Sequence record: NC_041936.1
Reading direction: 5' to 3' (one strand)
DNA length: 64,000 nucleotides
DNA from: Escherichia phage ECD7
The translations under genes were made by a program, and so were the position numbers. This document shows positions 21,335 through 34,956 of the stretch, piece after piece; position 1 is the first letter of the stretch; every line of letters starts with the position of its first letter. The notes under the pieces are model-generated. The model made no database searches, was not told the origin of the DNA, and saw nothing but the letters and a program-made list of their open reading frames with translations.

Positions 21335-21338
21335 TTTA

Positions 21339-21674: not shown

Positions 21675-21702
21675 TTTAATACTCCTTTGTTTCGATGGGG
21701 GT

Positions 21703-21731
21703 ATATTACTACCCCCGTTTTGTTGTGTCAA
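21703..21731 (-). promoter_or_regulatory. early promoter TTGACA-17-TAATAT with stem-loop GGGGGTA/TACCCCC around the -10
   Basis: Upstream of the 21674 start; SD AAGGAG. Confidence 0.5.
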
Positions 21732-21992
21732 CTACTTTTTCAAGATTTTTTTAATTGCGTTCCAAAGACCTTTATTCTCAGGTTGTTTTGGTTCTTCGAT
21801 CAGTGTCCATGTTCGACCGTCTAAGTGTGCACAATTTTTAAGACAAATAAAAATCTGGTGTCCATTATCATCACGGATATAACCACTATTCGCAAATCTT
21901 TCATGTGGTGTATATTCATACAGTGTATTTGGTGTAATATACTTGCGGTTACTATAAGGTGTCATTACATATTTCATGGTACTAACTCCCAT
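21732..21992 (-). CDS. hypothetical protein (paralog)
   Basis: ORF track 86 aa. Confidence 0.4.
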   Translation of the reverse strand: MGVSTMKYVMTPYSNRKYITPNTLYEYTPHERFANSGYIRDDNGHQIFICLKNCAHLDGRTWTLIEEPKQPENKGLWNAIKKILKK

Positions 21993-22168
21993 TTATCACC
22001 GCGAAGATGAGAACATCCACCATCAAGAAGGATCGTAATACGAAACCCCGCATCATCTTCAATATACCCGATTGTCGGTGGATTTTCGTCGTCTCGTGCC
22101 GGGGTAAAATCATACATCTTTCCCGGTGTGATATCATTGCCTTTATTGCTATTGGTATAAACTTGCAT
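21974..22168 (-). CDS. hypothetical protein (paralog)
   Basis: ORF track 64 aa. Confidence 0.4.
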   Translation of the reverse strand: MQVYTNSNKGNDITPGKMYDFTPARDDENPPTIGYIEDDAGFRITILLDGGCSHLRGDKWELVP

Positions 22169-22189
22169 TTTCTTAATCTCCTATATTAA

Positions 22190-22888
22190 CTAACCACGGG
22201 TATAGTGTTCCAGAACAACTGTCAGATGAATATATTCTAATAGATCTTTCCAAAAGTCAACATCTGGTTCTTCCGGCATACCGTTTTTCTTTGCCTCTTC
22301 ACGCGCGAGTTTAACACGCTCGTAGAGGTCTTTCAATTCTTCCCGCACATTATCAAATGTTCTTTCTCCTAACTTACACGCTAAAATCGAAGAACGTCGT
22401 GCGAGCGGGAATTGTAGATCACCTGTCTGGTAGATTTCAAGTAGCTGATAACCAACACGCAGAGCATGAGAAAGATCTTTCCAGTTACTGAAATACTTTT
22501 CCGATTTGGCTACCTGTTTCTTGAGATAACCAGACAAACCCCACATACCAACATGATAGAATTTATCGCGATGTGTTCGGATGTATTCCCATTCTCTGGA
22601 GGATTCGATCAACATGTTACTAGGCGCGTGCACCATGTCAATAGCGCCGATATCGCCTTTACATGCCAGATTGATAAACCGTTTTAGACTGAACATATTA
22701 ACGTCAATATCGTCTTTGGTGTTCTTGATCCCTTGACCGCTAGTGCTTTGATCATAGTGTTCTTTCATCGATCCTAAGATAATTTCTTTCGCAGTCGGAA
22801 CAAAGATACCACGATAATCTTTATCTGAATTTTCAGTATCAAGGCCGTATAAGTGAGATCCGAAGACCATTTTAACCATTGTATGCAT
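22190..22888 (-). CDS. nucleotidyltransferase-fold protein (pol-beta-like NTase superfamily), function unknown
   Basis: 232 aa; N-terminal VFGSHLYGLDTENSDKD matches the GS-x(9-13)-DxD NTase signature. Confidence 0.5.
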   Translation of the reverse strand: MHTMVKMVFGSHLYGLDTENSDKDYRGIFVPTAKEIILGSMKEHYDQSTSGQGIKNTKDDIDVNMFSLKRFINLACKGDIGAIDMVHAPSNMLIESSREWEYIRTHRDKFYHVGMWGLSGYLKKQVAKSEKYFSNWKDLSHALRVGYQLLEIYQTGDLQFPLARRSSILACKLGERTFDNVREELKDLYERVKLAREEAKKNGMPEEPDVDFWKDLLEYIHLTVVLEHYTRG

Positions 22889-22933
22889 AATTAAACCCTC
22901 AGTTGATTAAGAGATTGCATCATATCATCATAA

Positions 22934-22963
22934 AACGAAAAAGCCAACCCTTTTCGGATTGGC
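22934..22963 (-). terminator. rho-independent terminator after the grcA-like gene
   Basis: Hairpin GCCAATCCGAAAAGGGTTGGC + TTTTTCGTT on the minus strand. Confidence 0.6.
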
Positions 22964-22974
22964 TTGATGAAAAA

Positions 22975-23391
22975 TTAGAGAGATTCGGTAAAGGTACGCG
23001 CGATAACGTCACGCTGCTGGTCTGGAGTCAGACTATTGAAGCGCACTGCGTAACCAGAAACGCGAATTGTAAGCTGCGGGTACTTCTCAGGATGTTCAAC
23101 AGCGTCCAGCAACATTTCTCGTAACAATACGTTAACATTCAAATGCTGACCACCTTCGACAACCGGAGCACCATTATCTACAATGACAGGACGGAAGCTA
23201 GTTGTGTGCAGTGCCAGCGAATCGACGTCTTCTGCGGTGATCACATGGTCTTCTGCGAAAGTTTTACTAACAATTACTTTAGCGCCGATCAGTGCTTTCG
23301 GTTCGGATACCAGAATCATAGGCGCGAAGTGTCCACCAATAATAGTACCTTTATGCTCACCTTTCATGATTTGAATTGCTTTAAATTCCAT
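22975..23391 (-). CDS. grcA: autonomous glycyl radical cofactor (GrcA/YfiD-like)
   Basis: 138 aa; C-terminal [12 protein letters not shown]...[36 protein letters not shown] is close to E. coli GrcA; T4 is known to carry a YfiD homolog. Confidence 0.85.
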
Positions 23392-23401
23392 AATTCACCT
23401 C

Positions 23402-23527
23402 TTATAGATCAGGACGTTCGTCATTAATTTTACCAACCAAAACACCATAGAGTTTATCAGGTTGGATTTTACGATTCTTTTTAATTGTAGCACGAAATCG
23501 ACGAGCTACGCTATCTTTATTTTTCAT
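23402..23527 (-). CDS. small basic hypothetical protein (41 aa, not in ORF track)
   Basis: Hand-translated MKNKDSVARRFRATIKKNRKIQPDKLYGVLVGKINDERPDL; start overlaps upstream stop (TAATG). Confidence 0.25.
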   Translation of the reverse strand: MKNKDSVARRFRATIKKNRKIQPDKLYGVLVGKINDERPDL

Positions 23528-24012
23528 TAGTTGATACCTAAGCCAATGAAAATAGGTTGGTCTTCTACACTACCCCTTCCAACACTAAATCGATTTACTT
23601 CTAAAAACTGCAATACGCTGTCAGTAAATCCGCGCATGGTAGTATCTAGGATAAAAATTGTTTTGTCAAGACTACGACCTCGCCAAGTGATCGGATTCAG
23701 GAAAGTTCGGATAGACGTACAATCTACATTTGAAATATTTACATTTTCACCGCGACCGCGATCTCGGATCGTTTTGGCATGTTCCCGCGTCGTTGAAACG
23801 ATAAAGACACTATAGCCTTTTCTAGTATAATGGTCATATAACTTGATTGTAGCGTCTGTATGCCCTGTCTGACGTCCTAAATTGATTGAGACGATGGAAT
23901 CTAGGTCATCAGCAAAATTGCGTCGCTTACGGCGTTCTATGATGCCATTTACGGCAGAAATACACGCAGCATAAATCAAATCTTTACTTTCTAATTTTAC
24001 ATCAATATTCAT
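23527..24012 (-). CDS. hypothetical protein
   Basis: ORF track 161 aa; SD GGAG; GC hairpin just upstream. Confidence 0.45.
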   Translation of the reverse strand: MNIDVKLESKDLIYAACISAVNGIIERRKRRNFADDLDSIVSINLGRQTGHTDATIKLYDHYTRKGYSVFIVSTTREHAKTIRDRGRGENVNISNVDCTSIRTFLNPITWRGRSLDKTIFILDTTMRGFTDSVLQFLEVNRFSVGRGSVEDQPIFIGLGIN

Positions 24013-24028
24013 GGTAAAGTCTCCAGTG

Positions 24029-24061
24029 AACGGGGAGAGATCCTTAGATTGTCTCCCCGTT
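24029..24061 (-). promoter_or_regulatory. GC-rich 10-bp stem-loop (AACGGGGAGA..TCTCCCCGTT) without U-tract, between the endolysin and the next gene
   Basis: Perfect inverted repeat with 13-nt loop; shares the CGGGGAGA arm with hairpins near nrdD and gene 19. Confidence 0.4.
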
Positions 24062-24074
24062 GATGGTTAATATT

Positions 24075-24464
24075 TTATTTTGGATCTGGGTATTTGCTGT
24101 GTGGTAGCTGAAAATGAACACCGTCTTTAAACGATACCCAATCCCCACCCCATTCAACAGAAACACCCAATTCTCGACCAGCTTGTTTAAATGCATCCGC
24201 GATCATGCGGTAGTATTTCATGTTCCATGTATCCTTATCTTTCGGATACGCTACAACGTCAACCGCTAAACCGTGAAGATGACGAGATTTCATAGTCTTA
24301 GATTTACCTTCCGCAACATATTTCTTTTGCGTTTCTAGACTACGTACACCTTCCGTAATACCAAAATCGACCGGAGTCAGTTCTAATGCACGATGAACGA
24401 CTTTTACCAGATCAGGATGCACACCAACAAGCCGATCTTTGCTTCTTTGAGATAATTTAAACAT
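24075..24464 (-). CDS. endolysin, L-alanyl-D-glutamate peptidase (peptidase M15 family)
   Basis: 129 aa; SRHLHGLAVDV and DGVHFQL are the Zn-binding His/Asp/His motifs of M15 peptidases (T5 endolysin type). Confidence 0.7.
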   Translation of the reverse strand: MFKLSQRSKDRLVGVHPDLVKVVHRALELTPVDFGITEGVRSLETQKKYVAEGKSKTMKSRHLHGLAVDVVAYPKDKDTWNMKYYRMIADAFKQAGRELGVSVEWGGDWVSFKDGVHFQLPHSKYPDPK

Positions 24465-24493
24465 TATTCACCCCCCTTTGTGAGTGATAATAT

Positions 24494-24685
24494 TTAGATT
24501 CCGGCGATCCTGCATATAGTTCTTGTATTAGCACCAATCAGGATCGCATTAACGACAACCATTCCCCAATCAACCCACTGATTATTATAAATGCTAAACC
24601 CGTTTGCAAGACCAAATACAAGCATTCCGGTACACATACTCAGAGCAATAATCAACATCACGGTAAAACCAAATGCAAATCTCAT
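24494..24685 (-). CDS. small hydrophobic membrane protein
   Basis: ORF track 63 aa; two TM-like segments. Confidence 0.4.
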   Translation of the reverse strand: MRFAFGFTVMLIIALSMCTGMLVFGLANGFSIYNNQWVDWGMVVVNAILIGANTRTICRIAGI

Positions 24686-24686
24686 A

Positions 24687-24953
24687 TTATTTTCCTTTTC
24701 TCTGTTTACGTTTATAAAAGTAATACATTACCTCATCGCGTCCGGTGATCCAACATGCTAGGGCGGTAAACAGGTTTACAATTCCCAACACACCTACGGA
24801 TGCGGCGCTGTCAACAGACATAGGAACAGTAAAGGCCATAGCTAACATAGCAACGCCACAAATGACATTAAGCACCATTATAATAAGACCGAAGAAAACC
24901 ATTGTCAATCCTCCCAAATAAGAAAACCAACAATCACGCCAGTGATAAGACAT
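24687..24953 (-). CDS. small hydrophobic membrane protein
   Basis: ORF track 88 aa. Confidence 0.4.
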   Translation of the reverse strand: MSYHWRDCWFSYLGGLTMVFFGLIIMVLNVICGVAMLAMAFTVPMSVDSAASVGVLGIVNLFTALACWITGRDEVMYYFYKRKQRKGK

Positions 24954-25096
24954 GATGCGCCGCTAATAAGACAACCCGCGCCAAGTGATTCCCACCAGAT
25001 CAGAGAAGCGACAATAACACAGAATCCCCATACTACCGCAATCACAACATAGGCAAGGGTCGCCCAAAACATATATTTGTTCATAATAAATCCCAT
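24905..25096 (-). CDS. small hydrophobic membrane protein
   Basis: ORF track 63 aa. Confidence 0.4.
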   Translation of the reverse strand: MGFIMNKYMFWATLAYVVIAVVWGFCVIVASLIWWESLGAGCLISGASCLITGVIVGFLIWED

Positions 25097-25254
25097 TCAC
25101 CAAACAAATAAGAAAAAAGCCATATCAACAGAAACGAGGCAATTGATCCGGCAAGCAAAATGATATTAGAGAATCCGCCGTCTATCCAGCGACAAAACAG
25201 AATACGCCAGTATAGAAGCATAAACCCAGTACAAAGCATACTATAAGCAACCAT
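25081..25254 (-). CDS. small hydrophobic protein (57 aa, not in ORF track)
   Basis: Hand-translated MVAYSMLCTGFMLLYWRILFCRW...; fills an otherwise non-coding gap. Confidence 0.3.
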   Translation of the reverse strand: MVAYSMLCTGFMLLYWRILFCRWIDGGFSNIILLAGSIASFLLIWLFSYLFGEWDLL

Positions 25255-25315
25255 AGAAAGCCCTCCAGTGAGCTAATTTAGTGCGGGTAGTACATTACCC
25301 TACCCGTATTGTTAA

Positions 25316-25474
25316 TCATCGCAGAGCTTCTTCTAGCGCGATCCCAAACCATCCACAAACAACGCCCATACAGACAGCTACAAGAAGATTCATTCTCTCT
25401 TTAGGAATCATTGCAATCATAACAACAACCATACAGAAAGCCATTACCATTGAAGTTAACATTTGTTCAACCAT
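25316..25474 (-). CDS. small hydrophobic protein (52 aa, not in ORF track)
   Basis: Hand-translated MVEQMLTSMVMAFCMVVVMIAMIPKERMNLLVAVCMGVVCGWFGIALEEALR. Confidence 0.3.
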   Translation of the reverse strand: MVEQMLTSMVMAFCMVVVMIAMIPKERMNLLVAVCMGVVCGWFGIALEEALR

Positions 25475-25476
25475 TA

Positions 25477-25815
25477 TCACACCTTTAAAGTCATAGACGC
25501 ATAAACATTAATGCCAGTCCAGTTAGGATCGCAATTATACTCAACATCCCACAAATAAAGCGGTTTAGATGTATCAGCCAAGTTTTTAAAATCTTCTACC
25601 CACATTTCAAGGCTATATGATGGATAAACTAGGCTATCATATCCGCCGTAACGTTGGCCTACTGGTCGGTCAGTAAAAACTACCTCAAGATCCGGTAATT
25701 CTTTTTCAAGGATAACCGCCAGCGCATAAATCAGACGGTCTTCCTTGTTACGCTGCCGAAGGACCGTTGTCAGTTGGGTTTTCTGGTTCACTAGCAAGCA
25801 CCTCCACATTTTCAC
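25477..25815 (-). CDS. hypothetical protein
   Basis: ORF track 112 aa; overlaps upstream ORF by 68 nt. Confidence 0.4.
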   Translation of the reverse strand: MKMWRCLLVNQKTQLTTVLRQRNKEDRLIYALAVILEKELPDLEVVFTDRPVGQRYGGYDSLVYPSYSLEMWVEDFKNLADTSKPLYLWDVEYNCDPNWTGINVYASMTLKV

Positions 25816-26068
25816 AGAATGAAATTTTCACAGACACAATTTTACCATAAGTGAAGAATGAATATACATTATCGAGATATTCAACGTCACCTACAATCAC
25901 ATCAAACTGCGGATCAGCAACTGCCGCAACATATTCTACCAGTTCATCAAGAGAATGCAACTTAATTTCATCAATTCGGCTGTATTTGGTTGCATCTTTA
26001 ATTTTAAAACCACGTTCTTTCAGCTTGTCAATCAGAATTTCACGCGGAGTTTCAAACAGTTTGCTCAT
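25748..26068 (-). CDS. hypothetical protein
   Basis: ORF track 106 aa; SD GAGGATTATATT. Confidence 0.45.
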   Translation of the reverse strand: MSKLFETPREILIDKLKERGFKIKDATKYSRIDEIKLHSLDELVEYVAAVADPQFDVIVGDVEYLDNVYSFFTYGKIVSVKISFCENVEVLASEPENPTDNGPSAA

Positions 26069-26089
26069 AATATAATCCTCACATTAAAT

Positions 26090-26290
26090 CTAAAATTTGT
26101 TAACGACGAATTGCATAATTAGACTAATCACAAACATTGCAAACCAAGTATAAATGCAACAGATAAAAGCTACATACAATTCAATCTGGTCAGAGAATAC
26201 ACCGGGTAAAAGCATTAGCAAAATAACAACAGTAAAGACGCTAGCGATACCCGCAACAAAACCAATATCATTTTTACTAATCGTCATCAA
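26090..26290 (-). CDS. small hydrophobic membrane protein
   Basis: ORF track 66 aa. Confidence 0.4.
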   Translation of the reverse strand: MMTISKNDIGFVAGIASVFTVVILLMLLPGVFSDQIELYVAFICCIYTWFAMFVISLIMQFVVNKF

Positions 26291-26496
26291 GTCACCGTTT
26301 TGTAAAGAAACACAATAAAATCCAAGACAAGAAAGACAGTGTAAATGATCATCGTCAAGACAGTAAACACTGTCAAATTTTCATCGTTAGTTAATTCATA
26401 GTCGCCCATCCATACAATAACAAGATATAGCATTGAAAGAATGGAAGCACCTACGAAGTTAAAAAACATATTCTTGAGCGTCATATTAACAACCAT
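26287..26496 (-). CDS. small hydrophobic membrane protein
   Basis: ORF track 69 aa. Confidence 0.4.
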   Translation of the reverse strand: MVVNMTLKNMFFNFVGASILSMLYLVIVWMGDYELTNDENLTVFTVLTMIIYTVFLVLDFIVFLYKTVT

Positions 26497-26668
26497 CGCG
26501 GCTTAAGTCAACAACAATTGCATACAGCATAATGAATATGCTAGCAGATCCGAGAATCAATGCACCCTCACATTTTGAAACTCGCTCATCAAAATGTAAC
26601 ATTATCCATCCGAGGATGTTAAAGGCGCAGACCGCGCCTATGTTCGCTAACCAATTAATCTTTTTCAT
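26486..26668 (-). CDS. small hydrophobic membrane protein
   Basis: ORF track 60 aa. Confidence 0.4.
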   Translation of the reverse strand: MKKINWLANIGAVCAFNILGWIMLHFDERVSKCEGALILGSASIFIMLYAIVVDLSRDGC

Positions 26669-26676
26669 AATATACC

Positions 26677-27003
26677 TTAGAAAGAAACAGTTTTCAAGAA
26701 ATCCAGATTTTTAGTACCGAAAACAGAAAAGTAGTGTTTTCCTTTTTCGGTTTTAGAGAAAGCGATTGTCTTCTCTACATGGTGACGGAAGCCAGACAGA
26801 CGATCACCCAGGTCAAGGCGGCAAGCGTAAGTAGTGCCGTTTTCGAAAGTAACCTCGATTTGAGTTTTGTCATATTCGCTTTCATAGGCTTTTGCTGCCG
26901 CGTCCTGTGCTTTACGCTCGAAGTCTTCGAAGTGGAATACTTCGTTTGCGTTAGCGAATACAGAAGATTCAGAGAAGATAACTTTAACAGATACTGGTTT
27001 CAT
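26677..27003 (-). CDS. hypothetical protein
   Basis: ORF track 108 aa; promoter cassette at 27046-27074. Confidence 0.45.
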   Translation of the reverse strand: MKPVSVKVIFSESSVFANANEVFHFEDFERKAQDAAAKAYESEYDKTQIEVTFENGTTYACRLDLGDRLSGFRHHVEKTIAFSKTEKGKHYFSVFGTKNLDFLKTVSF

Positions 27004-27045
27004 TTTGATACTCCTTAGTAGTTCGTGTTTCGTTTCGATGGGTGT

Positions 27046-27074
27046 ATTATGCTATACACCCTCTCTCGTGTCAA
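27046..27074 (-). promoter_or_regulatory. early promoter TTGACA-17-CATAAT with stem-loop GGGTGTAT/ATACACCC
   Basis: Upstream of the 27003 start. Confidence 0.5.
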
Positions 27075-27083
27075 CAACTTTTT

Positions 27084-27272
27084 TTAGTCTTTTTTCAAAA
27101 TTTTTAAGGCAGTTTCTACAGCACCTTTCCAACCCTCCCACATAATGGACATAGTAATGAAGTTAAAGCACCCGCAGGAATCAACCTTTTTAGAGATAAA
27201 CCATTCAACAAATCCTTCGCTCATACCATGCTCTTTAGCGGATTCGCGTAATTGTTCAATTTGGTCTTCCAT
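27084..27272 (-). CDS. hypothetical protein
   Basis: ORF track 62 aa. Confidence 0.4.
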   Translation of the reverse strand: MEDQIEQLRESAKEHGMSEGFVEWFISKKVDSCGCFNFITMSIMWEGWKGAVETALKILKKD

Positions 27273-27281
27273 AGTATCACC

Positions 27282-27482
27282 TCAACACTTAACGTTATTC
27301 AAACGATTTTGAAAGTACATATAGCAAGCATAATTTTGCTTTGGTTGTACCGTATCAGATAGACACGCTTTTGCAGCCTCGCGGTCCGATGGATCTACAC
27401 CCTCAGCTTTAAGTAATGCTAAAATCTGGTTATAGCGTACTCTTAGCTGTACTAATGGTTTCTCTCCCACAAAACCCTCCAA
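27282..27482 (-). CDS. hypothetical protein
   Basis: ORF track 66 aa. Confidence 0.4.
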   Translation of the reverse strand: MEGFVGEKPLVQLRVRYNQILALLKAEGVDPSDREAAKACLSDTVQPKQNYACYMYFQNRLNNVKC

Positions 27483-27710
27483 TTAAAGTTGTTCTGCAAT
27501 GTATGCGGTGCATTTGCGGAGTTTAGCCATAGCACCACCTTTCATGTCGCTTGCGCCTACAATGTTCATGATCTCTAAGCGATCAGCCGGATTCAGTCTA
27601 GTAGCCCAGATCTGGTTAGCCAGTTCCATTTTACCCATCTGCGGTTCCATCTCAAACATTTCACGCTCAAAGTCGATAATTTCTTTTGCTGCGTCTTTAA
27701 AGTTAATCAT
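27483..27710 (-). CDS. hypothetical protein
   Basis: ORF track 75 aa; promoter at 27740-27768. Confidence 0.4.
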   Translation of the reverse strand: MINFKDAAKEIIDFEREMFEMEPQMGKMELANQIWATRLNPADRLEIMNIVGASDMKGGAMAKLRKCTAYIAEQL

Positions 27711-27739
27711 TTTGGTCCTCCCGTTTCGTTGATGGTTGT

Positions 27740-27768
27740 ATTGTAGGGGAGTTATCCTCCCCTGTCAA
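27740..27768 (-). promoter_or_regulatory. early promoter TTGACA-17-TACAAT whose spacer is the palindrome GGGGAGGATAACTCCCC
   Basis: Anchored between the 27777 stop and the 27710 start. Confidence 0.5.
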
Positions 27769-27776
27769 CACTTTTA

Positions 27777-27962
27777 TCAGAAATATGCAATATAGTTTGC
27801 CAGTCCTACAGAGTCATCATTCGGCATTGCTTTTACCGCCAGTTCAAACCCTGCTTCAACTTTCTGTTTAGCGGATTCTTCGTTATAACCCCAGATGACC
27901 AGAATAGCTACTACGTTTTCTTTGCTTACTGCTTTCAGTGCTTTAGTGATGCGACGTGCCAT
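27777..27962 (-). CDS. hypothetical protein
   Basis: ORF track 61 aa; promoter at 28009-28037. Confidence 0.4.
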   Translation of the reverse strand: MARRITKALKAVSKENVVAILVIWGYNEESAKQKVEAGFELAVKAMPNDDSVGLANYIAYF

Positions 27963-28008
27963 AATTTGATTCTCCGTTTAAGAAAGTGTGTTTCGTTTCG
28001 ATGGGTGT

Positions 28009-28037
28009 ATTATGCTATAGGCGTGATCTGGTGTCAA
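28009..28037 (-). promoter_or_regulatory. early promoter TTGACA-17-CATAAT (near-identical copy of the 27046 cassette core)
   Basis: Shares about 30 nt with the cassette at 27020-27055. Confidence 0.5.
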
Positions 28038-28054
28038 CAACTTTTTTAAAAATT

Positions 28055-28088
28055 TTAGGCAATAAAAAAGCCACTCCGAAGAGTGGCT
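28055..28088 (-). terminator. rho-independent terminator
   Basis: Hairpin AGCCACTCTTCGGAGTGGCT + TTTTTTATT on the minus strand. Confidence 0.6.
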
Positions 28089-28237
28089 TATAGGGAAGGT
28101 AGCGAATCTTCCTTGTCTCCAACCTGCTAGCGGCCTAGCAAGTGAATGCTTTAGCGTACCGGATCACCCCATACGCTGTAATAAATGCGGCTAGGTGACG
28201 TCCAAATCATTCTAACCGCGCTGTCTTTAGTTCACTA

Positions 28238-28456
28238 TTATTTATATCGCTTTCTCTCGCGACGTTTTTGATCTTCTTCCTTGATAGAGTTAAACGCATC
28301 AAAAAGACACATGACACTGATAATGAACATAACCGTATTTTCTACGATATCCCACGGCTTCGCATCAGTACAGATCCCCCAAACGGTAAGAAATGCAAAT
28401 AGTGCAGAAGAGATCACAAGCATGATACTTGCTAAGATATAAAAAGTCATTTTCAT
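28238..28456 (-). CDS. small hydrophobic membrane protein
   Basis: ORF track 72 aa. Confidence 0.4.
   Translation of the reverse strand: MKMTFYILASIMLVISSALFAFLTVWGICTDAKPWDIVENTVMFIISVMCLFDAFNSIKEEDQKRRERKRYK
28239..28246 (-). promoter_or_regulatory. TATAAATA late-promoter-like box overlapping the last codons of gene 28238..28456
   Basis: Exact match to the T4 late -10 consensus on the minus strand, facing a 150-nt non-coding stretch that ends at a terminator; could be chance. Confidence 0.3.
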
Positions 28457-28647
28457 GGTTTTACCTCAATTCTTCGATATTCATCACACATCCACGCAGT
28501 AAGCAAGAATCCCAGCACATAAGCAACAAAATACGTTAATGCTTCTTCTGGTTTCGTGCTATGTATCATCAGTAAACCAGCGAGAACGGTCTTAACAATT
28601 ACATTTAAAATAATTAGCCACGCAAATAATTTCATCGTTTGCCCCAT
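28453..28647 (-). CDS. small hydrophobic membrane protein
   Basis: ORF track 64 aa. Confidence 0.4.
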   Translation of the reverse strand: MGQTMKLFAWLIILNVIVKTVLAGLLMIHSTKPEEALTYFVAYVLGFLLTAWMCDEYRRIEVKP

Positions 28648-28871
28648 TTCGGTCGAGTCTTTTCAAACTTATACATTACGTAACAATCTCGAATCATCCA
28701 CGTAACAAGAGCACCAGTCAACACAGACAACACACAGAAGAAGTAAAACGGTCCGGTTGCATTATCAACATGAGCAAGCCATGTAAAGAAAACACATGCT
28801 AAGAATGTAAAGAACATCATAAAACACAAGAAAGCAAAATATTTTATGCTACTCATAGCGCCACCATACAA
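28632..28871 (-). CDS. small hydrophobic membrane protein
   Basis: ORF track 79 aa. Confidence 0.4.
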   Translation of the reverse strand: MYGGAMSSIKYFAFLCFMMFFTFLACVFFTWLAHVDNATGPFYFFCVLSVLTGALVTWMIRDCYVMYKFEKTRPKWGKR

Positions 28872-28959
28872 CAGATCATAAGAAAACCCAACGCAATAAG
28901 AATTGCATCAAATTTAGTGAACTCCGGTCCACCTATCAACATCATTCGTTCCTGTTCAT

Positions 28960-29202
28960 TCATAGATCACAGAGCCATCTGAAAGCACCACATAAAGCGA
29001 GCAGAATACTAGGTATAAACGAGACTAAAACAAGTTGGCAAAAATCATCTAAGGTAACACCGGAATAGCTACCTACTGTAACAACACCGATCATCAGACA
29101 CAGAAAGAAAACAAATGCAATCAGAAACAAAGTATTGCTAAACAGTTTAGTGATCATTAGACACCCCACGACGATCAATTTCAAAAACTTTTTTATCATC
29201 AA
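28960..29202 (-). CDS. small hydrophobic membrane protein
   Basis: ORF track 80 aa. Confidence 0.4.
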   Translation of the reverse strand: MMIKKFLKLIVVGCLMITKLFSNTLFLIAFVFFLCLMIGVVTVGSYSGVTLDDFCQLVLVSFIPSILLALCGAFRWLCDL

Positions 29203-29350
29203 CGAAGCATGTCACAACTGCCTCGTTGACTTCCGCAAATTGTTGTGTTACCCACTTAAGGTCAGAGCGAAACAATGTTCTATTAATAACAAATGTTTTA
29301 CCGCTCTTATCCTTACCCATAAATTTTGCTTTAACCATATCCAATTCCAT
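29147..29350 (-). CDS. hypothetical protein
   Basis: ORF track 67 aa. Confidence 0.4.
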   Translation of the reverse strand: MELDMVKAKFMGKDKSGKTFVINRTLFRSDLKWVTQQFAEVNEAVVTCFVDDKKVFEIDRRGVSNDH

Positions 29351-29359
29351 ATTATCACC

Positions 29360-29518
29360 TTATTTGCTAATCGCTAAACCCAATCCGAAGAGAGCACCCG
29401 ATGCTACAGTATACACGAAAGTTTCAAAGGCAGTAAAGATATCTAAGCCACCAGCTAACAGAGTTGCAGTAAACAGAGTACCAGCTACGAACATAAAAGT
29501 TTTACCGATAAATTTCAT
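29360..29518 (-). CDS. small hydrophobic protein (52 aa, not in ORF track)
   Basis: Hand-translated MKFIGKTFMFVAGTLFTATLLAGGLDIF...; preceded by AAGGAGAATCAAG and the promoter at 29550-29578. Confidence 0.35.
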   Translation of the reverse strand: MKFIGKTFMFVAGTLFTATLLAGGLDIFTAFETFVYTVASGALFGLGLAISK

Positions 29519-29549
29519 CTTGATTCTCCTTTCGTTTGTTTGTGGGGGT

Positions 29550-29578
29550 ATCTTACTACCCCCGTTTCATGTTGTCAA
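29550..29578 (-). promoter_or_regulatory. early promoter TTGACA-17-TAAGAT with stem-loop GGGGGTA/TACCCCC
   Basis: Between the 29585 stop and the small ORF start at 29518. Confidence 0.5.
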
Positions 29579-29584
29579 CTGTTT

Positions 29585-29959
29585 TTAAGAAAATTTTACT
29601 TCGTCTACAATGTCTTTCATGACATTGATTTCCATTCCGGTCAGAACACGTTGGAACATGTGCTGAACATACGCTTTCAGGTATTCATTTGACGGCTTGC
29701 TATCAAAAGTCTTTTTAGTGTAGTAGTCATCACCGAAAGCTACTGTAATTACATTTTCGTCGTCATTCCAAGCGATATAAGCAAATTTGCCGTTATCCCA
29801 GAAGCGAGCACTAATTGCTACTTTTGTTGAATCGAATCCTAATTCGCTGTGAGATTCAAGAACTACTTGCGTGCCAGTTTCTTTATGAATGTAGTAGCGG
29901 GATACTAAGTCAAAGTTACGGGTGTAGTGACATTCGAATTTATCTTTAAACATCATCAT
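29585..29959 (-). CDS. hypothetical protein
   Basis: ORF 29585..30028 trimmed to MMMF behind AGGAGAATCAAA; promoter near 29997-30025. Confidence 0.45.
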   Translation of the reverse strand: MMMFKDKFECHYTRNFDLVSRYYIHKETGTQVVLESHSELGFDSTKVAISARFWDNGKFAYIAWNDDENVITVAFGDDYYTKKTFDSKPSNEYLKAYVQHMFQRVLTGMEINVMKDIVDEVKFS

Positions 29960-29996
29960 TTTGATTCTCCTAAGTGTGTTTCGTTTCGATATGTGT

Positions 29997-30025
29997 ATTA
30001 TTCTATAGTCGTTTATGGTTGTCAA
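29997..30025 (-). promoter_or_regulatory. early promoter TTGACA-17-AATAAT
   Basis: Downstream of the terminator after the acb1-like gene; coordinates anchored to the 30069 stop. Confidence 0.45.
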
Positions 30026-30029
30026 CACC

Positions 30030-30062
30030 TAAAAACAAAAAACCCCGAAAAATTTTCGGGGT
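30030..30062 (-). terminator. rho-independent terminator after the acb1-like gene
   Basis: Hairpin ACCCCGAAAATTTTTCGGGGT + TTTTTGTTTTT on the minus strand. Confidence 0.6.
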
Positions 30063-30068
30063 ATAAAA

Positions 30069-30539
30069 TTACAGTTTGGTCGTCCACTCCAGGTCTAGAT
30101 CTTCGACATACTCATGAGATCGGACAATCTCTAAATCGAACTCTAGGTCAGTGCCAAATTTACGCGCACCAACATCATAAGAAAGCGTGATATGCGGTAC
30201 ATATTCAGGATAATCCCACGTCGCACCTAAAGCAGTGCCGATATCGTGTCTGAATTGCATGTAGTCGCTTTCAAATGCCAACACAAGCGCATTAGTACCG
30301 GATTGAGTTTCAAACACTTTCAGATGACACAGAGAGCCTAAAAACTTTTCACCCTCTTCCGGGATAAACGGAACATAGACACGAGAATATAAGATAGTGC
30401 TATGCAGTTTATCACGAGGAACAGCATTAGGCAGATCGTAGAACTCCTGCAATTTTTCAATGCGGTCTAGTGTATCCTCAGTGAATTTAACCGCAGCATA
30501 TGTACCTTTAACGGATTCTCGAAACGGGGTCATAATCAA
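30069..30539 (-). CDS. acb1: 2H-phosphoesterase, Acb1-like (anti-CBASS; T4 gene 57B position)
   Basis: 156 aa; two H-x-T/S-x motifs (HSTILY, HITLSY) of the 2H family; lies upstream of 57A and gene 1 as T4 57B does. Confidence 0.65.
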   Translation of the reverse strand: MIMTPFRESVKGTYAAVKFTEDTLDRIEKLQEFYDLPNAVPRDKLHSTILYSRVYVPFIPEEGEKFLGSLCHLKVFETQSGTNALVLAFESDYMQFRHDIGTALGATWDYPEYVPHITLSYDVGARKFGTDLEFDLEIVRSHEYVEDLDLEWTTKL

Positions 30540-30802
30540 GCCTCCGTGATCAGTTCTACTTCCTCTTTATCGTCTTCCGCTGCTTCGTCTTTAGGGAGAA
30601 GTGCTTTCACTTCTTCGACAATCGCATCAAGGGAAACAGTGCCGTTTTCGTCTGGCTGAATACCCAGAATGCGTACCAGTTCCATCAATACACGCTCACG
30701 ATCTTTCAGTTGGCCTTCTAAGAATGCGGCCTTTTCTTGAGTGTCAAACAGACGTACTTTCAGGACATTAATCATTTGTTCATGCTGATTGGACATATTC
30801 AC
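30536..30802 (-). CDS. 57A: gp57A-like protein (by position)
   Basis: 88 aa acidic coiled-coil ORF between the 57B-like gene and gene 1; assignment by synteny only. Confidence 0.45.
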   Translation of the reverse strand: MNMSNQHEQMINVLKVRLFDTQEKAAFLEGQLKDRERVLMELVRILGIQPDENGTVSLDAIVEEVKALLPKDEAAEDDKEEVELITEA

Positions 30803-30829
30803 ATCTCCTACTTGTTGATAACTTTTTTA

Positions 30830-31486
30830 TTAAATGTTCGCGAGAATCGCGCTTTCAAATTCTTCTAATGTACCATTATTTATGATAATGGTTTCACCGT
30901 CAATAGGCAAAATTCCTTTTTCGGTGGAGTGAGTCGATACAATACCAGTATCACGATGAATATGCAACACCTTAGCACCCATAGAACGCATGAGAGCAAT
31001 TTCAATAGGCTGACGCACATCAACCACTACAAAATACCCTTCTTCATTTTTGCGCTTCATAAACTCATTCACGAAGAGATTACACCAATAAAGCGGATTG
31101 ATCAAGTTAACCATTATATCAGTACCGAGAGTGGTTAACATGAGACGAATAGACCAGACGTTATTATGTTTTTCGCCAATCTCATTAACGACCTTGTAAA
31201 TCTCAGCCAGACGATCACAAGTAAAGGAACTACCGCCATACTTCGAATCTAACATAAGCAGACACTGAATAAACCACTTATGCGCGGTATAGGTATCAAT
31301 ACCTAGATCGGCTTCTCTGTCACGCCCTAACCCGTCAAAGTCAAGATAAGTCAGACCTAAGTCTGGTTGACATTCGCATAAGATTTCTTTGATCGGTGCT
31401 GCCAGTTGATAACTGTGTCCATCAATGATTAACGCGGCAGTGTCTTTTCCTACTCGCTTTTTACCACAAAGTGCAATCAATTTCAT
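30830..31486 (-). CDS. 1: deoxynucleoside monophosphate kinase
   Basis: 218 aa; P-loop CGKKRVGKDT; T4 gene 1 position. Confidence 0.8.
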   Translation of the reverse strand: MKLIALCGKKRVGKDTAALIIDGHSYQLAAPIKEILCECQPDLGLTYLDFDGLGRDREADLGIDTYTAHKWFIQCLLMLDSKYGGSSFTCDRLAEIYKVVNEIGEKHNNVWSIRLMLTTLGTDIMVNLINPLYWCNLFVNEFMKRKNEEGYFVVVDVRQPIEIALMRSMGAKVLHIHRDTGIVSTHSTEKGILPIDGETIIINNGTLEEFESAILANI

Positions 31487-31501
31487 TATATAAGCCTCTT
31501 A

Positions 31502-32092
31502 TTACTTTCTAAAAGCAGGGTGCATAGCTTTAATACCTTCCACCCGCTGACGATCCGCCGCCTGAATTGCTGGGCGAGGAACGATCAGTTGACCATCACG
31601 TTCAATGCTCATTGTTTTAAATGGAAGAATTGCAGTACACACCAGAGATTCATGCATATCATCAGTGTATGTTAACTCAAGTTCCCCCAATTGTGAACAC
31701 CAACAACCATAAAAGTTAAAGGTGCAAACAATGTTACGGCGTTCATTGTCCATCATGTGAACTTGAACGGCTTCCGGCATTGAATCCTTCCACGCTGTGG
31801 AGTTACCGTTATTGTAGTCTACTATAGAAAGCATCCATGTGTAAAGGTTTAGATAGCTTTCCAAATGCTCATCAACGATAAACCGGACTACCAACGGGTC
31901 AAACTCCACATGACTAGACGGATAATCAGCAACCGCCAAACCATATTGACCAGCAACTTGCTTAGTCGGTGGAATGGTTATAGCAGGAAGTGTAACACAT
32001 TGACAGTTTAAAGTAAAGCCTTTTGTTAGTTGACCATCTGGAATATTGATCTGCCAGTTGCTAGGGTTAGCATAGTTAAAGAGATTAGACAT
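31502..32092 (-). CDS. 3: tail completion / sheath stabiliser protein gp3 (by position)
   Basis: 196 aa ORF between gene 1 and gene 2; call is synteny-based. Confidence 0.55.
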   Translation of the reverse strand: MSNLFNYANPSNWQINIPDGQLTKGFTLNCQCVTLPAITIPPTKQVAGQYGLAVADYPSSHVEFDPLVVRFIVDEHLESYLNLYTWMLSIVDYNNGNSTAWKDSMPEAVQVHMMDNERRNIVCTFNFYGCWCSQLGELELTYTDDMHESLVCTAILPFKTMSIERDGQLIVPRPAIQAADRQRVEGIKAMHPAFRK

Positions 32093-32282
32093 TACTGATT
32101 CCTCAAATGAAAATATTTATTAACAATTGTCGCTTTGCGACGTGCCGGAGGCACTGACTACTTTTTAACCGAAACAAATTTTCTATTATTCTAAAGATCT
32201 TTCTTCGTTTTGGTTATGTTTTAACCAATAACTATATTTTTATACAGTAATAAATAAAACGGGTACTATACGAGGACTTCTT

Positions 32283-32537
32283 ATGACAGAAGACATTTTG
32301 TTAAAACTCTATGATCGTCTGGATAACGAATTGGCAACATTGCGGGGTGAAGTTCTCTATTTGTCTAAATGCAATACAGATCTGCTTAAGCAGATTGCAG
32401 AAAGGGATGATCAAATAAAATCCCTTTCAGGTGCATTACGTGATCGCGACAAGGCATTAGAGATTTTACAGCGTGTTACCAATAAGGAAGAATTAAAAGA
32501 CTTCTTACATGGTTATGCTCATGCCATCGATCTATAA
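32283..32537 (+). CDS. hypothetical coiled-coil protein, opposite strand to neighbours
   Basis: ORF track 84 aa; only plus-strand ORF in the early block, adjacent to the HE-like gene. Confidence 0.35.
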   Translation: MTEDILLKLYDRLDNELATLRGEVLYLSKCNTDLLKQIAERDDQIKSLSGALRDRDKALEILQRVTNKEELKDFLHGYAHAIDL

Positions 32538-32567
32538 TAAAAAAGCCCGTCAATGACGGGCTTAATT

Positions 32568-33602
32568 TTAATATGTATCAGCTAATTTAATTATGTTATC
32601 AAGTTCCGTGATTGGTAAAGTTTCTGTGTATCCATCTTTCAACATGGATTTATCAACAACGCCACAATGATAAGTTCTCTTTATTTCCTTTTCAAGTTCC
32701 CACGGAATCCAGCCATCAACACTTTGTTTGACGTAAACAAGTTTGTGAACAAACTTAGATTTCTGCATATGTTGTTTCATTCTGGTTTCCGGTAATTCAT
32801 TGGTTACACCAAACTTTATAAATTTATCATCTAACGTCTGGATATAAAAATATCCCATCTCAGATGGACGATAGCCAGAAGAACTACATTTCGGACACCC
32901 TTTAGCATTTCTGTTGAACGTACAATATCTTACAGAAAATTCTGCGTCATGTTTTGTACATTTAAGTTTTATCCATGAATTTGCAGTACCTATCCATTCA
33001 CCATCGACACCTATATATTCATACCCTAACTTTTTACATTTATCTTCTATTCTAGATAGTGCATCTTCCACGGGAACGACATATTCCGTCTTAAATTGTT
33101 CAGCCGCACATTTCTTACAACCACATGTACCATGATTTTTAAAATCAAAGAACTTTGTATTCTTCCAAATGTGGTCATGTTTCTTGCATCTAAGAATCAT
33201 CTTAGTAATTTGTGATTTCCAGCCACCAACAAATCCCAAAAATTCATAATCAAGATCTTTACATTTTTCTTCAATGAATTTGGTTGCTTCCTCTTCTGTC
33301 ATAACTCCCCTACATTGAGGGCAACCAACAATAACCTTTTTAGCATAGAAACTATTACTGGAAACATCATAGACAGTTCCATGCTTATTGCATTGGATAA
33401 CAGATCTAGTCAATTTTCCTTTCCATTCTCCAGAAAATCCTAAGAATGTATGGTCGACAAGTTTACATCTTTCAATAACTTTATCCGCAAATTCTCTAGG
33501 AGATTTTGTTACCTTGTTTACTCTGTATTCTATTTCTTCCGGTTGACGAAGATAATAAACGTGGGGATTGCTCCCCACGGAATTAATATTAATATTAAGC
33601 AT
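32568..33602 (-). CDS. putative homing-endonuclease-like protein: three Cys-containing repeats plus C-terminal T5orf172/GIY-YIG-like domain
   Basis: ORF 32568..33704 trimmed to the Met overlapping the gene 2 stop; three ~55-aa repeats (..C.KHG...GCP.C..); C-terminal GYFYIQTLDDKFIKFGVTNELPETR...ELEKEI. Confidence 0.45.
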   Translation of the reverse strand: MLNININSVGSNPHVYYLRQPEEIEYRVNKVTKSPREFADKVIERCKLVDHTFLGFSGEWKGKLTRSVIQCNKHGTVYDVSSNSFYAKKVIVGCPQCRGVMTEEEATKFIEEKCKDLDYEFLGFVGGWKSQITKMILRCKKHDHIWKNTKFFDFKNHGTCGCKKCAAEQFKTEYVVPVEDALSRIEDKCKKLGYEYIGVDGEWIGTANSWIKLKCTKHDAEFSVRYCTFNRNAKGCPKCSSSGYRPSEMGYFYIQTLDDKFIKFGVTNELPETRMKQHMQKSKFVHKLVYVKQSVDGWIPWELEKEIKRTYHCGVVDKSMLKDGYTETLPITELDNIIKLADTY

Positions 33603-34416
33603 CCTTCCACACCTTCCTTGCATCATAGTTTTTACCTTTAGAAACAAATTTATATGTGTTAAGGTAGATAATATTGCTCCAGTCTTTCGGGCTAATCTCA
33701 ACAAGTTTTGTTTTAATGTGTCCAGGTAGATATGCTTTGATCATGTGGTCACTACCACGCATACCTTTTACATCGCTCCATTTGATTTTTAAGCGTGTTT
33801 TATTGCTCAAGGTAGGAGTAGATGCATATTGCTTTAAAAGTGCCTCTAAAAACTGCTGACGGGCTTTAGGCGTTACATAGTGTAAGTTAAGACCCAGCAT
33901 TACAGTATTACCCGCCTTTGTCTTAGAATCACCCAGACAAATGATCAGCGGGAAAACATCCCAATATGGCAAAGTGTCTTTATACTTCGCATCATACATA
34001 AAGGTATAGATTCGCCCTACTTGCGGTTTTACAATCTGGTGTCCCTTTATTCCCGCTTTTATTGTTTTAGTAAACCACTCCTGTGATTTTTCTTTAGGGC
34101 GACTCTTTGATACAGCACGCATAGACGCACGAAAATCATTAATCATCATCATTGCGCGTTGCTGCTTATTGAGACCCTTTGCGCCTTTCCCTTTTAGTTT
34201 TTCAACTTCTATTGCTGTTTTAATTTCGCTGGCATAACGAGACATACTTTTAGTGAAAGTCGCATAGGCTATTCCCTTAGAATCTGCAAATGCTTTAGCT
34301 GTCATTCCTTTGGCTTTTGCTTTCGCAAATTCTACACCCAATTCGACCCACTGTTTAGACTTTCTTTTTTGGGGAGACGGCTTTTCGTCTTCTGTGATTA
34401 TTTCAAATACGCTCAT
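33595..34416 (-). CDS. 2: DNA end protector protein gp2
   Basis: 273 aa, T4 gp2 size; position between gp3 and gp4. Confidence 0.75.
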   Translation of the reverse strand: MSVFEIITEDEKPSPQKRKSKQWVELGVEFAKAKAKGMTAKAFADSKGIAYATFTKSMSRYASEIKTAIEVEKLKGKGAKGLNKQQRAMMMINDFRASMRAVSKSRPKEKSQEWFTKTIKAGIKGHQIVKPQVGRIYTFMYDAKYKDTLPYWDVFPLIICLGDSKTKAGNTVMLGLNLHYVTPKARQQFLEALLKQYASTPTLSNKTRLKIKWSDVKGMRGSDHMIKAYLPGHIKTKLVEISPKDWSNIIYLNTYKFVSKGKNYDARKVWKDA

Positions 34417-34427
34417 AATATTATCCT

Positions 34428-34901
34428 CTATTTGTTAAGCCCTTTAAAGCCAAACACTTTCTTTAATGCATGTTCGGTTATGATCTTAAACTCCATGTTA
34501 TGCTTTTGGCATAATTTCACGGCAGCTAACCATTTTTCAGTATTTTTTGTGTACGTCCATACTTCATGCATATATCGTTGCTTTGTCTTCGCGGTCATTC
34601 TTTTTGGCTTTTCCGGTGGCCTTGTCTCTTTAGCTGGTTTAACTTCCCATAAATGCTCCTTGCCATCATCAAACTTAACGTAAAAATCCATAAAGTATCT
34701 GTGTCTTTTCCCGTCTGTTGATGACTCATAAGGAATTACTACGGTCTCAGATCCCCATTTTGCAACTCTAGGATTGCGGTCTAGCCACTGCATGATCCAT
34801 CTTTCCCAGCTTGAACGGTATGTGATCTTACGTATATCCCCTTTATACTTTTCCTTATTCTCAGGAACATACTTGCCCTTATAAGTGTTAGATCCTCCCA
34901 T
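34428..34901 (-). CDS. 4: head completion protein gp4
   Basis: 157 aa starting MGGSNTYKGKYVPENK; T4 gp4 position opposite gene 53. Confidence 0.75.
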   Translation of the reverse strand: MGGSNTYKGKYVPENKEKYKGDIRKITYRSSWERWIMQWLDRNPRVAKWGSETVVIPYESSTDGKRHRYFMDFYVKFDDGKEHLWEVKPAKETRPPEKPKRMTAKTKQRYMHEVWTYTKNTEKWLAAVKLCQKHNMEFKIITEHALKKVFGFKGLNK

Positions 34902-34916
34902 TTTAGCACCCTTTAT

Positions 34917-34924: not shown

Positions 34925-34956
34925 CATAATACTATTTATCAATTGAGGGTGATAAA

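Follow-up and report, generated by a model that had tools for sequence, protein, structure and literature searches.

A conserved, structured non-coding element at the 3′ end of the early dmd operon of Krischvirus phages, a candidate functional RNA

We found a non-coding element at positions 28064-28237 (minus strand) of the 64,000-nucleotide stretch of phage DNA analysed here, hereafter the window. It folds into a row of hairpins, ends in an intrinsic terminator, occupies the genomic interval that in T4 carries tRNAs and stable RNAs, and is under purifying selection. We propose that it encodes a functional structured non-coding RNA of the minus strand, lying at the 3′ end of the early dmd operon and acting in its own right, a reading to which we give about an even chance. 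The initial annotation had described the stretch as a candidate small RNA bounded by a late-promoter-like box and a terminator. A non-coding, structured and conserved minus-strand RNA with its terminator was borne out by our analysis, whereas the late promoter as its 5′ boundary was not. Such an RNA would form a family of its own within a general type that is already known.

A 1-kb query around the element matched 57 GenBank phages with 97-99.8% identity, all of them Krischvirus (RB49, Phi1, JSE, GEC-3S and their relatives), which identified the window as DNA of an RB49-like T4-type coliphage of this genus. The minus strand carries every gene of the region around the element (Table 1). The element is bounded by the stop of the 72-aa membrane ORF and by the early promoter of a promoter-early stem-loop (PeSL) cassette. 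At the end of the 72-aa ORF, phage E26 has TAA CAG TGA in place of the three consecutive stops TAA TAG TGA. The element adjoins an island with the anti-defence genes acb1 and dmd, and the genes for RlaP, a macro-domain protein, thymidine kinase and gp38 also lie further down than the DUF7421 gene. The T4 genome carries its eight tRNA genes, together with the stable RNAs rnaC and rnaD, between the lysis gene e and 57B. The earlier remark that the gap corresponds to this tRNA/e region with its stable RNAs was right, as the element lies between the endolysin gene and Acb1/57B.

Table 1. Features of the region around the element, from high to low coordinates, with sequence motifs read on the strand given
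Feature	Position	Strand	Description
Gene 3	31502-32092	minus	
Gene 1	30830-31486	minus	dNMP kinase
57A-like ORF	between gene 1 and Acb1/57B	minus	
Acb1/57B	30069-30539	minus	followed by a PeSL cassette, two small ORFs and Dmd
Dmd	29147-29350	minus	followed by five small membrane ORFs, the last being the 72-aa ORF
72-aa ORF	28238-28456	minus	two predicted membrane helices; phrog_15168; last gene of the operon
Mechanical ORF, 35-36 aa	28207-28317	minus	overlaps gap edge
T4 late-promoter consensus box	28239-28246	minus	TATAAATA; also TAT AAA and the TA of the stop TAA of the 72-aa ORF
Consecutive in-frame stops	28232-28240	minus	TAA TAG TGA at the end of the 72-aa ORF, from sequence
Conserved non-coding element	28064-28237	minus	5′ tail, H1-H4 and terminator; 3′ untranslated end of the early dmd/small-membrane-protein operon
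5′ tail	28237-28220	minus	
Hairpin H1	28187-28219	minus	8 + 4 bp with internal loop, GCGGUUAG..UGAU-UUGGAC-GUCA.CUAGCCGC
Linker	between H1 and H2	minus	AUUUAUUAC
Hairpin H2	28153-28177	minus	7-bp lower stem AGCGUAU/GUACGCU; hypervariable tip at 28161-28170
Linker	between H2 and H3	minus	AAAGCA
Hairpin H3	28118-28146	minus	upper 8 bp CUUGCUAG-GCCG-CUAGCAGG above a weaker lower stem
Linker	between H3 and H4	minus	GAGACAA
Hairpin H4	28094-28112	minus	GGAAG-AUUCGCUAC-CUUCC; T-arm-like but degenerate; followed by 7 nt, G and CCA
Linker	between H4 and terminator	minus	CUAUA
Mechanical ORF, 35-36 aa	28015-28122	minus	overlaps gap edge
Mechanical ORF, 35-36 aa	27986-28093	plus	overlaps gap edge
Intrinsic terminator	28064-28089	minus	9-bp stem 28089-28068, UUCG loop, six U at 28069-28064
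Early sigma-70-type promoter of the PeSL cassette	28009-28037	minus	TTGACA-17-CATAAT, 11/12 matches; outside the element, bounding its 3′ side
DUF7421 gene	27962-27777	minus	downstream of the element and the PeSL early promoter
M15 endolysin	24078-24464		further down in the gene order
RegB	20915-21376		further down from the element

The interval 27963-28237 is the longest internal stretch of the 64 kb without an ORF of 40 aa or more, and the gap has a G+C content of 51%, compared with 40% for the window, which places it in the top 2% of 130-nt windows. The statement that it holds no ORF of at least 30 aa was correct for ORFs inside the gap but not at its edges, which are overlapped by three mechanical ORFs of 35-36 aa. 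Some GenBank records annotate these edge ORFs, whose frames are broken in relatives by indels that are not multiples of three. Stops are present in all six frames of the gap, where relatives differ by indels of 1, 2 and 4 nt, so that no reading frame among the edge ORFs is conserved. A 28-aa ORF on the plus strand (28185-28271) is likewise frameshifted by a 1-nt deletion in SSG23 and L020. With no frame open and with indels in relatives, we rejected a protein-coding small ORF or a pseudogene as an explanation; the spurious small ORFs that several GenBank records annotate inside the stretch are thereby flagged. The searches for tRNAs and RNA families recommended in the initial annotation were both without a match, and its observation that the gap holds no tRNA cloverleaf stands: ARAGORN detected no tRNA or tmRNA gene in the whole 64-kb window, and no Rfam family (riboswitch, ribozyme or known sRNA) matched in the window at its gathering score. 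Below threshold (E up to 10, 27900-28400), the Rfam matches were weak and driven by the terminator (RNAI, STnc100 and EF3314), the best of them, RNAI, reaching 22.8 bits against a gathering threshold of 47.

We then analysed the 3′ boundary. The strong terminator said to close the gap is real, intrinsic and on the minus strand; five of its nine stem pairs are G-C, the stem is invariant in 24 sequences, and the records of GEC-3S, TB34 and G5211 annotate a terminator at this site. In phage FL15, the loop is inverted to CGAA. The terminator hairpin is the stem-loop of a PeSL cassette. Such cassettes have been described in RB49 and Phi1 as repeated motifs of about 100 bp, present in roughly 50 copies per genome (PMC2839356, PMC4122927), and are known sites of recombination, through which modules spread (PMC2839356); the latter paper makes no mention of ORF117/118 or of a non-coding RNA. 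The defining features of a PeSL, namely a stem-loop, an AT-rich tract, sigma-70-type -35 and -10 boxes, SD-ATG and repetition, were found together for 27963-28089 only. This part belongs to a repeat family (D1) with three copies, the others lying at 27025-27093 and 29976-30044. The element part at 28090-28237, in contrast, is not repeated; it is present in a single copy and is absent from the other PeSLs of the window. Since the other PeSL stem-loop of the region (30062-30042, after Acb1) directly follows a stop codon, the extra 150 nt found here are unusual.

The arrangement of signals suggests how the element may be transcribed. An early-type promoter (TTGACA-17-TAAGAT) lies on the minus strand at 29578-29550, and the only minus-strand terminator-like sites between 30062 and 28068 are those at 30062-30042 and 28089-28068. 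No sigma-70-type promoter was detected inside the gap in a scan of the minus strand. Since no terminator is predicted between the promoter at 29578-29550 and the gap, the RNA is expected as the 3′ end of the early dmd operon transcript. Early transcripts would thus probably start near 29578-29550 and extend over dmd and the genes of the five small membrane proteins as far as the PeSL terminator (28089-28064), with the element as the last 170 or so nucleotides of this transcript. The PeSL promoter at 28037-28009 is predicted to drive the downstream DUF7421 gene. An attenuator or riboswitch for the downstream genes is unlikely, as these genes have a strong promoter of their own beyond the terminator and the sequence showed no anti-terminator pairing. 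A link to the DUF7421 gene was also discarded, because the homologues of this gene (about 77% identity) found in T1-like phages of about 50 kb lack the element and are preceded by a spacer of 72 nt. Likewise, we rejected an antisense or plus-strand RNA, as nothing like a plus-strand promoter was found near the gap and the hairpin lacks a T-run when read on that strand.

The fold on the minus strand consists of four hairpins (H1-H4) and the strong intrinsic terminator. With the terminator included, this strand folds better than its shuffles (z = -4.5); without it, z was -2.9, a value equalled by 1 of 200 shuffles, and the corresponding value of the plus strand was -1.9. The parts of the fold differ in their variation. 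The loop of H1 shows one change, C to U in L012, and the upper stem of H3 is invariant, with a G to U change in its loop in JEP8. The tip of H2, on the other hand, has 11 alleles, including indels of 1-2 nt, in an alignment (A4) of 24 distinct sequences, which was assembled from 22 GenBank copies and contigs. The hairpin GCTAG-cggc-CTAGC, already recognized from the sequence, was located at 28126-28139, and a GGAG motif lies at the base of H3 (28120-28117). RNAalifold favours a long-range helix between 28229-28237 and 28100-28109, which replaces H4 and closes a four-way junction. H4 and this helix would be mutually exclusive foldings, and the data fit either.

Changes in the stems among relatives point to selection on RNA. 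In H2, pair 62/87 changes from A-U to G-U in kaaroe, OZ035808, L016 and the IMG/VR contig, and pair 65/84 from G-C to G-U in UPWr_E1. Pair 63/86 of the same hairpin changes from G-C to G-U in L012 and L013 and from G-U to A-U in L016 and the IMG/VR contig, completing the series G-C, G-U, A-U. In H1, pair 25/47 changes from U-A to U-G in Brandy, and in H4, pair 130/144 changes from A-U to G-U in L012 and L013. Thus, all five single stem transitions outside the H2 tip give G·U on the minus strand and A·C on the plus strand; by chance half would be expected each way, and the probability of five of five in one direction is about 0.03. The only disruptive stem change outside the H2 tip is a C to A transversion in the lower pair C96-G120 at the base of H3, shared by kaaroe, OZ035808 and AV108. 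The G·U-only changes together with one compensatory pair thus argue for selection on an RNA from the gene strand. Overall, 99.0% of the alignment cells are paired, and the covariation score was reached by 5 of 500 shuffles, a level that related sequences can attain with the tool used even when they have no structure. We therefore rate the structural evidence as moderate. As all copies come from one genus with at least 96% identity, 37 of the 48 pairs never vary and the covariation rests on few events. The structural evidence agrees in direction with the fold energies, the gene orientation and the terminator orientation, and the pattern of kept pairing with strand-specific G·U changes is, at this moderate level, what would be expected of a structured RNA in general.

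The conservation of the gap in relatives, which the initial annotation had proposed to check, proved to be high: it is kept almost unchanged across Krischvirus. A 156-nt core is present as a single copy in each of the 57 Krischvirus genomes with 96.8-100% identity, and blastn in distant mode detected no copies beyond these 57 records. Searches through relatives of the 72-aa protein and DNA pattern scans recovered the element in eight further contigs, one from IMG/VR and seven metagenomic, in which the upstream 72-aa protein is only 81-93% identical; look-ups of 20-21-mers returned one IMG/VR contig and two metagenome contigs. A covariance model of H1-H4 (R1), run over 1.16 Mb comprising 57 other T4-like loci downstream of Acb1 and the T4 tRNA region, found only the element itself. 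More distant copies were also sought with nhmmer and blastn-short, which gave nothing, the recurrent 12-mers being coding sequence for A-K-A-F. A host or plasmid origin was rejected, as the generic terminator hairpin was the only part matched by blastn in 5,426 E. coli genomes and 72,556 plasmids, and no copy of a 27-mer of the element occurred in 185,579 species genomes. Within the reach of these data, the element thus appears to be specific to Krischvirus. A literature search for a Krischvirus transcriptome, RNA-seq study or sRNA report returned none. Complementarity between the element and the rest of the window was confined to matches of 10-12 nt, which is the chance level, and a possible mimic of CRISPR repeats was dropped, since a few hexamers resembling the E. 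coli I-F repeat gave no consistent alignment.

Nucleotide diversity (pi), calculated from 14 sequences spanning the whole region, demonstrated that the element is under purifying selection, as its diversity is far below that of the neighbouring synonymous sites. At third codon positions, pi was 0.150 in the 72-aa ORF, 0.087 in the 64-aa ORF, 0.215 in the 75-aa ORF and 0.047 in the DUF7421 gene, the protein of which is invariant. In the element, it was 0.0096 at 28090-28161 (4 segregating sites in 72), 0.028 at 28173-28237 and 0 in the terminator. The tip of H2 (28162-28172) reached 0.195, and the spacer of the adjacent PeSL promoter is also polymorphic. Neutral positions in the block thus had time to vary, and most of the element did not. 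Furthermore, conservation of the unpaired linkers and of most loops equals that of the stems (pi 0.01-0.03). The block of low diversity, from about 28200 to 27750, also takes in the PeSL and the DUF7421 gene, so that part of the conservation could reflect a recent spread of the module by PeSL recombination.

We next weighed other explanations of the stretch. It could be an independent small-RNA gene that is transcribed late from the TATAAATA box, starting near 28233 and ending at the terminator, with a product of about 170 nt. The octamer is indeed an exact match to the T4 late-promoter consensus and lies on the minus strand at 28246-28239, as originally reported. It is kept in 29 of 30 relatives, and its three positions that could change synonymously never vary, while 56% of the third positions of the ORF segregate; moreover, late promoters of the T4 type need only the octamer (PMC1524935). 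However, the octamer is at chance frequency, with five copies of TATAAATA in the window where 6.3 are expected and 18 of ATAAATA where 24 are expected, and here it doubles as coding sequence (Tyr-Lys) and stop codon. The late promoters of RB49 have been reported exclusively upstream of orthologues of T4 late genes (PMC1524935), and the box at the gap has no ORF behind it, whereas the one at 32114 stands 22 nt upstream of gene 3. Thus, compared with a T4-type late unit, the octamer is found at -13 to -6, but it is neither above chance, nor in front of a late gene, nor independent of coding. A start at 28233 would also remove most of the 5′ strand of the long-range helix. In addition, absence of the box in relatives had been named in advance as an observation that would refute the proposal, and the box is missing from one relative, albeit a single metagenome contig (L019, MAVA01000028.1), where a 14-nt deletion takes out GATATAAATAATAG, the C-terminus of the upstream ORF is frameshifted and the rest of the element is intact. 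With the box at chance frequency, made of codons and lost in this relative, its role as late promoter and 5′ boundary was not upheld, and we consider an independent late gene unlikely. Late transcription from the box may add to the RNA but is not needed for it.

A stretch that acts only in cis, as a 3′ UTR whose hairpins protect the operon mRNA from 3′ exonucleases or improve termination, would account for the position directly upstream of the terminator on the operon transcript, for the row of stable hairpins and for stem changes that keep pairing. However, a simple barrier would not require linkers and most loops to be conserved like the stems, other PeSL terminators in the window have no such leader, and the terminator hairpin alone is already very stable; we regard this explanation as rather improbable. 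The purifying selection contradicts a functionless relic of the T4-type cluster of tRNAs and stable RNAs, and a relic in any form, including one exapted from a tRNA, seems very unlikely to us, even though the element lies at the site where T4 and about 50 other T4-like loci carry tRNAs, rnaC and rnaD, and RB49 has no tRNA genes (ARAGORN; PMC1524935). The sequence of H4 and its flanks also shows a resemblance: GACAAGGAAGAUUCGCUACCUUCCCUA agrees at 21 of 27 positions with an unusual 83-nt phage tRNA that has the anticodon GUU and a long variable arm, or at 26 of 34 when extended by hand over the next seven bases, with G and CCA at tRNA spacing. The matched part of the tRNA comprises the variable arm, the T-arm and the 3′ part of the acceptor, the seven best-scoring phage tRNAs are all of that family, and weak matches of the R1 model in other phages fall on tRNA T-arms. 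The similarity is marginal, however, since as high a score came up in 19 of 1000 shuffles and in 22 of the 992 natural segments taken from the window (p about 0.02). The element contains no UU[AG]U[AG]GG that could serve as an acceptor 5′ strand and pair with CCUAUAA. In the T-arm register, the key T-loop residues G53 and A58 are replaced, position 53 being A opposite C and position 58 being C, and no tRNA detector and neither the rnaC nor the rnaD model gave a match. A tRNA origin would thus be a lead, not a finding. A tRNA gene as such was rejected, as ARAGORN found none, RF00005 gave no match at E up to 10 over 27900-28400, and there is no acceptor stem. Finally, the sequence could act as DNA, for instance by binding a protein or as an origin of replication or a site of recombination. 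The perfect palindrome GCTAG-CGGC-CTAGC, the conserved unpaired positions, the adjacent PeSL as a known recombination site (PMC2839356) and the inverted terminator loop of FL15, which points to hairpin or cruciform events in DNA, would be in keeping with this. Nevertheless, G·U changes on one strand only are unexpected for duplex DNA, the element has no iterons or direct repeats, and the minus strand folds better than the plus strand; we consider a DNA-level element highly improbable.

We thus prefer a structured RNA that is made as the 3′ end of the operon transcript and acts in its own right. Selection would keep its pairing and most of its unpaired sequence, leaving only the H2 tip free to vary. 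A stable 3′ fragment would probably be freed from the mRNA by endonucleolytic cleavage, since the phage encodes RegB; candidate sites are the AU-rich linkers (28178-28186 and 28147-28152) and GGAG where H3 begins to pair. The freed fragment could then act in trans or bind a protein, by analogy with small RNAs derived from 3′ UTRs in enterobacteria. More speculatively, and as a long shot, the element could represent an undescribed family of regulatory or decoy RNAs that arose from a tRNA in the ancestral T4-type cluster and survived in a lineage from which every tRNA has been lost. Such an RNA might act in trans, for example by imitating a tRNA 3′ half and so drawing off a host nuclease or processing enzyme directed at tRNAs, or by regulating host mRNAs in an Hfq-dependent manner, with the H2 tip engaged in an arms race.

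To our knowledge, very few non-coding RNAs apart from tRNAs are known in T4-type phages, and the element, present throughout the genus, is a clean candidate for one with a function. RB49, Phi1 and JSE are easy to grow and to engineer, which makes the question directly testable. Should the RNA prove to target the host or defence systems, an arsenal so far described as proteins would gain an RNA member; if the element is only a stabilizing 3′ UTR, it would be an ordinary feature.

Among known systems, the stable RNAs rnaC (species 1, 139 nt) and rnaD (species 2, 119 nt) of T4 share with the element the type of phage, the strand and the interval from the lysis gene to 57B/Acb1-57A-gene 1, and all are structured non-coding RNAs of 120-170 nt. 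Relatives of rnaC occur in 23 of 57 T4-like loci and those of rnaD in 13 of 57, always 2-6 kb downstream of Acb1, and the rnaD relatives, like the element, combine a conserved body with a hypervariable internal hairpin. The T4 RNAs sit within a tRNA cluster and are cut out by tRNA-processing enzymes, whereas the element comes after a protein gene, ends in an intrinsic terminator of its own and belongs to a phage that lacks tRNAs. We know of no function assigned to rnaC or rnaD, and neither is in Rfam. We built covariance models from T4 rnaC and 19 relatives (R2) and from T4 rnaD and 12 relatives (R3). With filters off, R2 gave no minus-strand match on the element within 20000-36000, its best, unrelated match scoring 9 bits; R3, also with filters off, gave none on the element, and the R1 model of the element had no match in T4. 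Homology to rnaC or rnaD was thus rejected, and the element is a positional analogue of these RNAs, not a detectable homologue. With tRNA-like structures, it shares the T-arm-like H4 and, in one predicted fold, a four-way junction closed by a long-range helix. On its 3′ side, the terminator (28089-28064) and the promoter (28037-28009) form a typical PeSL. Small RNAs derived from 3′ UTRs of enterobacteria include, for example, CpxQ, SroC, DapZ and MicL. Compared with these, the element is longer, far more structured and phage-encoded. Like them, it lies at the (here predicted) 3′ end of an mRNA, the intrinsic terminator and U-tail of which it shares, carries an A/U-rich UAUAA directly before the terminator hairpin, and is better conserved than the synonymous sites of the preceding gene.

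The 72-aa ORF that precedes the conserved non-coding element ends in TAA TAG TGA, three successive in-frame stops of all three kinds, which phage E26 carries as TAA CAG TGA. We observed a larger change at this site in the metagenome contig MAVA01000028.1, where the A-run is longer by two A, a 14-nt deletion (GATATAAATAATAG) is present and the 72-aa ORF has a new C-terminus, …EEDQKNVARES*. The contig lacks both the TATAAATA box and the triple stop, and the element downstream of the deletion is intact. The change could be genuine or could come from a faulty assembly.

In several GenBank entries for Krischvirus (PTE-Eco09, GoldenSnicker, Delraymugoa, FL15 and UPWr_E1), small "hypothetical proteins" are annotated at two places around the element; their ORFs either cross the terminator and the promoter or share sequence with the 72-aa ORF in a different frame. 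Since these frames are not conserved, the small ORFs look like annotation artefacts. The 72-aa ORF itself is not annotated in PTE-Eco09.

Within the element, the tip of hairpin 2 has 11 alleles, including indels of 1-2 nt, among 24 distinct sequences, while the rest is nearly invariant. The diversity of the tip is at the level of synonymous sites, and could be due to neutral drift, to slippage within the G-run or to selection for diversity. On the 3' side, the spacer of the early promoter in the promoter-early stem-loop (PeSL) cassette contains two positions between -35 and -10 with at least five alleles (AC, CG, GT, CT and CA), and the A/T tract differs in length by 1-5 nt; no variation is seen in the promoter hexamers or in the 5' UTR. 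The 61-aa DUF7421 protein showed no variation in the 14 sequences compared. Its counterparts, with about 77% identity, occur in T1-like siphoviruses about 50 kb in size (L090, L091 and L093; for example, phage JMPW2), in which the gene is followed by another 61-aa ORF. This suggests that DUF7421 is a small gene swapped between unrelated coliphages.

Positions of the features described, in the ECD7 window unless a locus is named
Feature	Position	Strand
gp38 tail-fibre adhesin gene	14728-15501	
ORF-free stretch	17229-17359	
DUF7421 gene	27777-27962	
Annotated small ORF	28015-28122	-
PeSL promoter spacer	28018-28025	
A/T tract	28040-28060	
Terminator loop (CGAA in FL15)	28077-28080	
Hairpin 2 tip	28161-28170	
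Annotated small ORF	28207-28317	-
Equivalent of region altered in MAVA01000028.1 (L019)	28225-28275	-
Triple stop	28232-28240	-
ORF-free divergent region	32093-32282	
ATAAATA box	32114	-
ATAAATA box	32250	+
rnaC and rnaD, T4 tRNA region (L018)	4909-5172	
GUU tRNA, locus L030	12569-12651	
GUU tRNA, locus L036	12133-12217	

Elsewhere in the window, the highest G+C peak (62% over 130 nt) lies within the gp38 gene and presumably falls in the Gly-rich segments that bind the receptor. There are two other internal ORF-free stretches, one of which separates gene 3 from a plus-strand gene and carries ATAAATA boxes on both strands, as true late promoters would be expected to do.

The T4 RNAs rnaC and rnaD are clearly related to sequences in other T4-like contigs, 23 for rnaC and 13 for rnaD, with homologues within loci L028-L075. 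Covariation is seen in both families, and rnaD has a hypervariable internal hairpin. Neither family is present in Rfam 15, and our alignments (A5 and A6) and covariance models (R2 and R3) are possible seeds for such entries. We also found an unusual 82-85-nt tRNA with the anticodon GUU (Asn according to ARAGORN) and a long variable arm like that of a class II tRNA, in L030, L036 and a further seven T4-like loci; several T4-like phages share this conserved tRNA, inside their tRNA clusters.

Finally, the terminator loop UUCG is replaced in phage FL15 (L082) by its reverse complement, CGAA, on the same stem. This is a hairpin-loop inversion, and it fits the reported recombination within the PeSL stem-loops of RB49 and Phi1.
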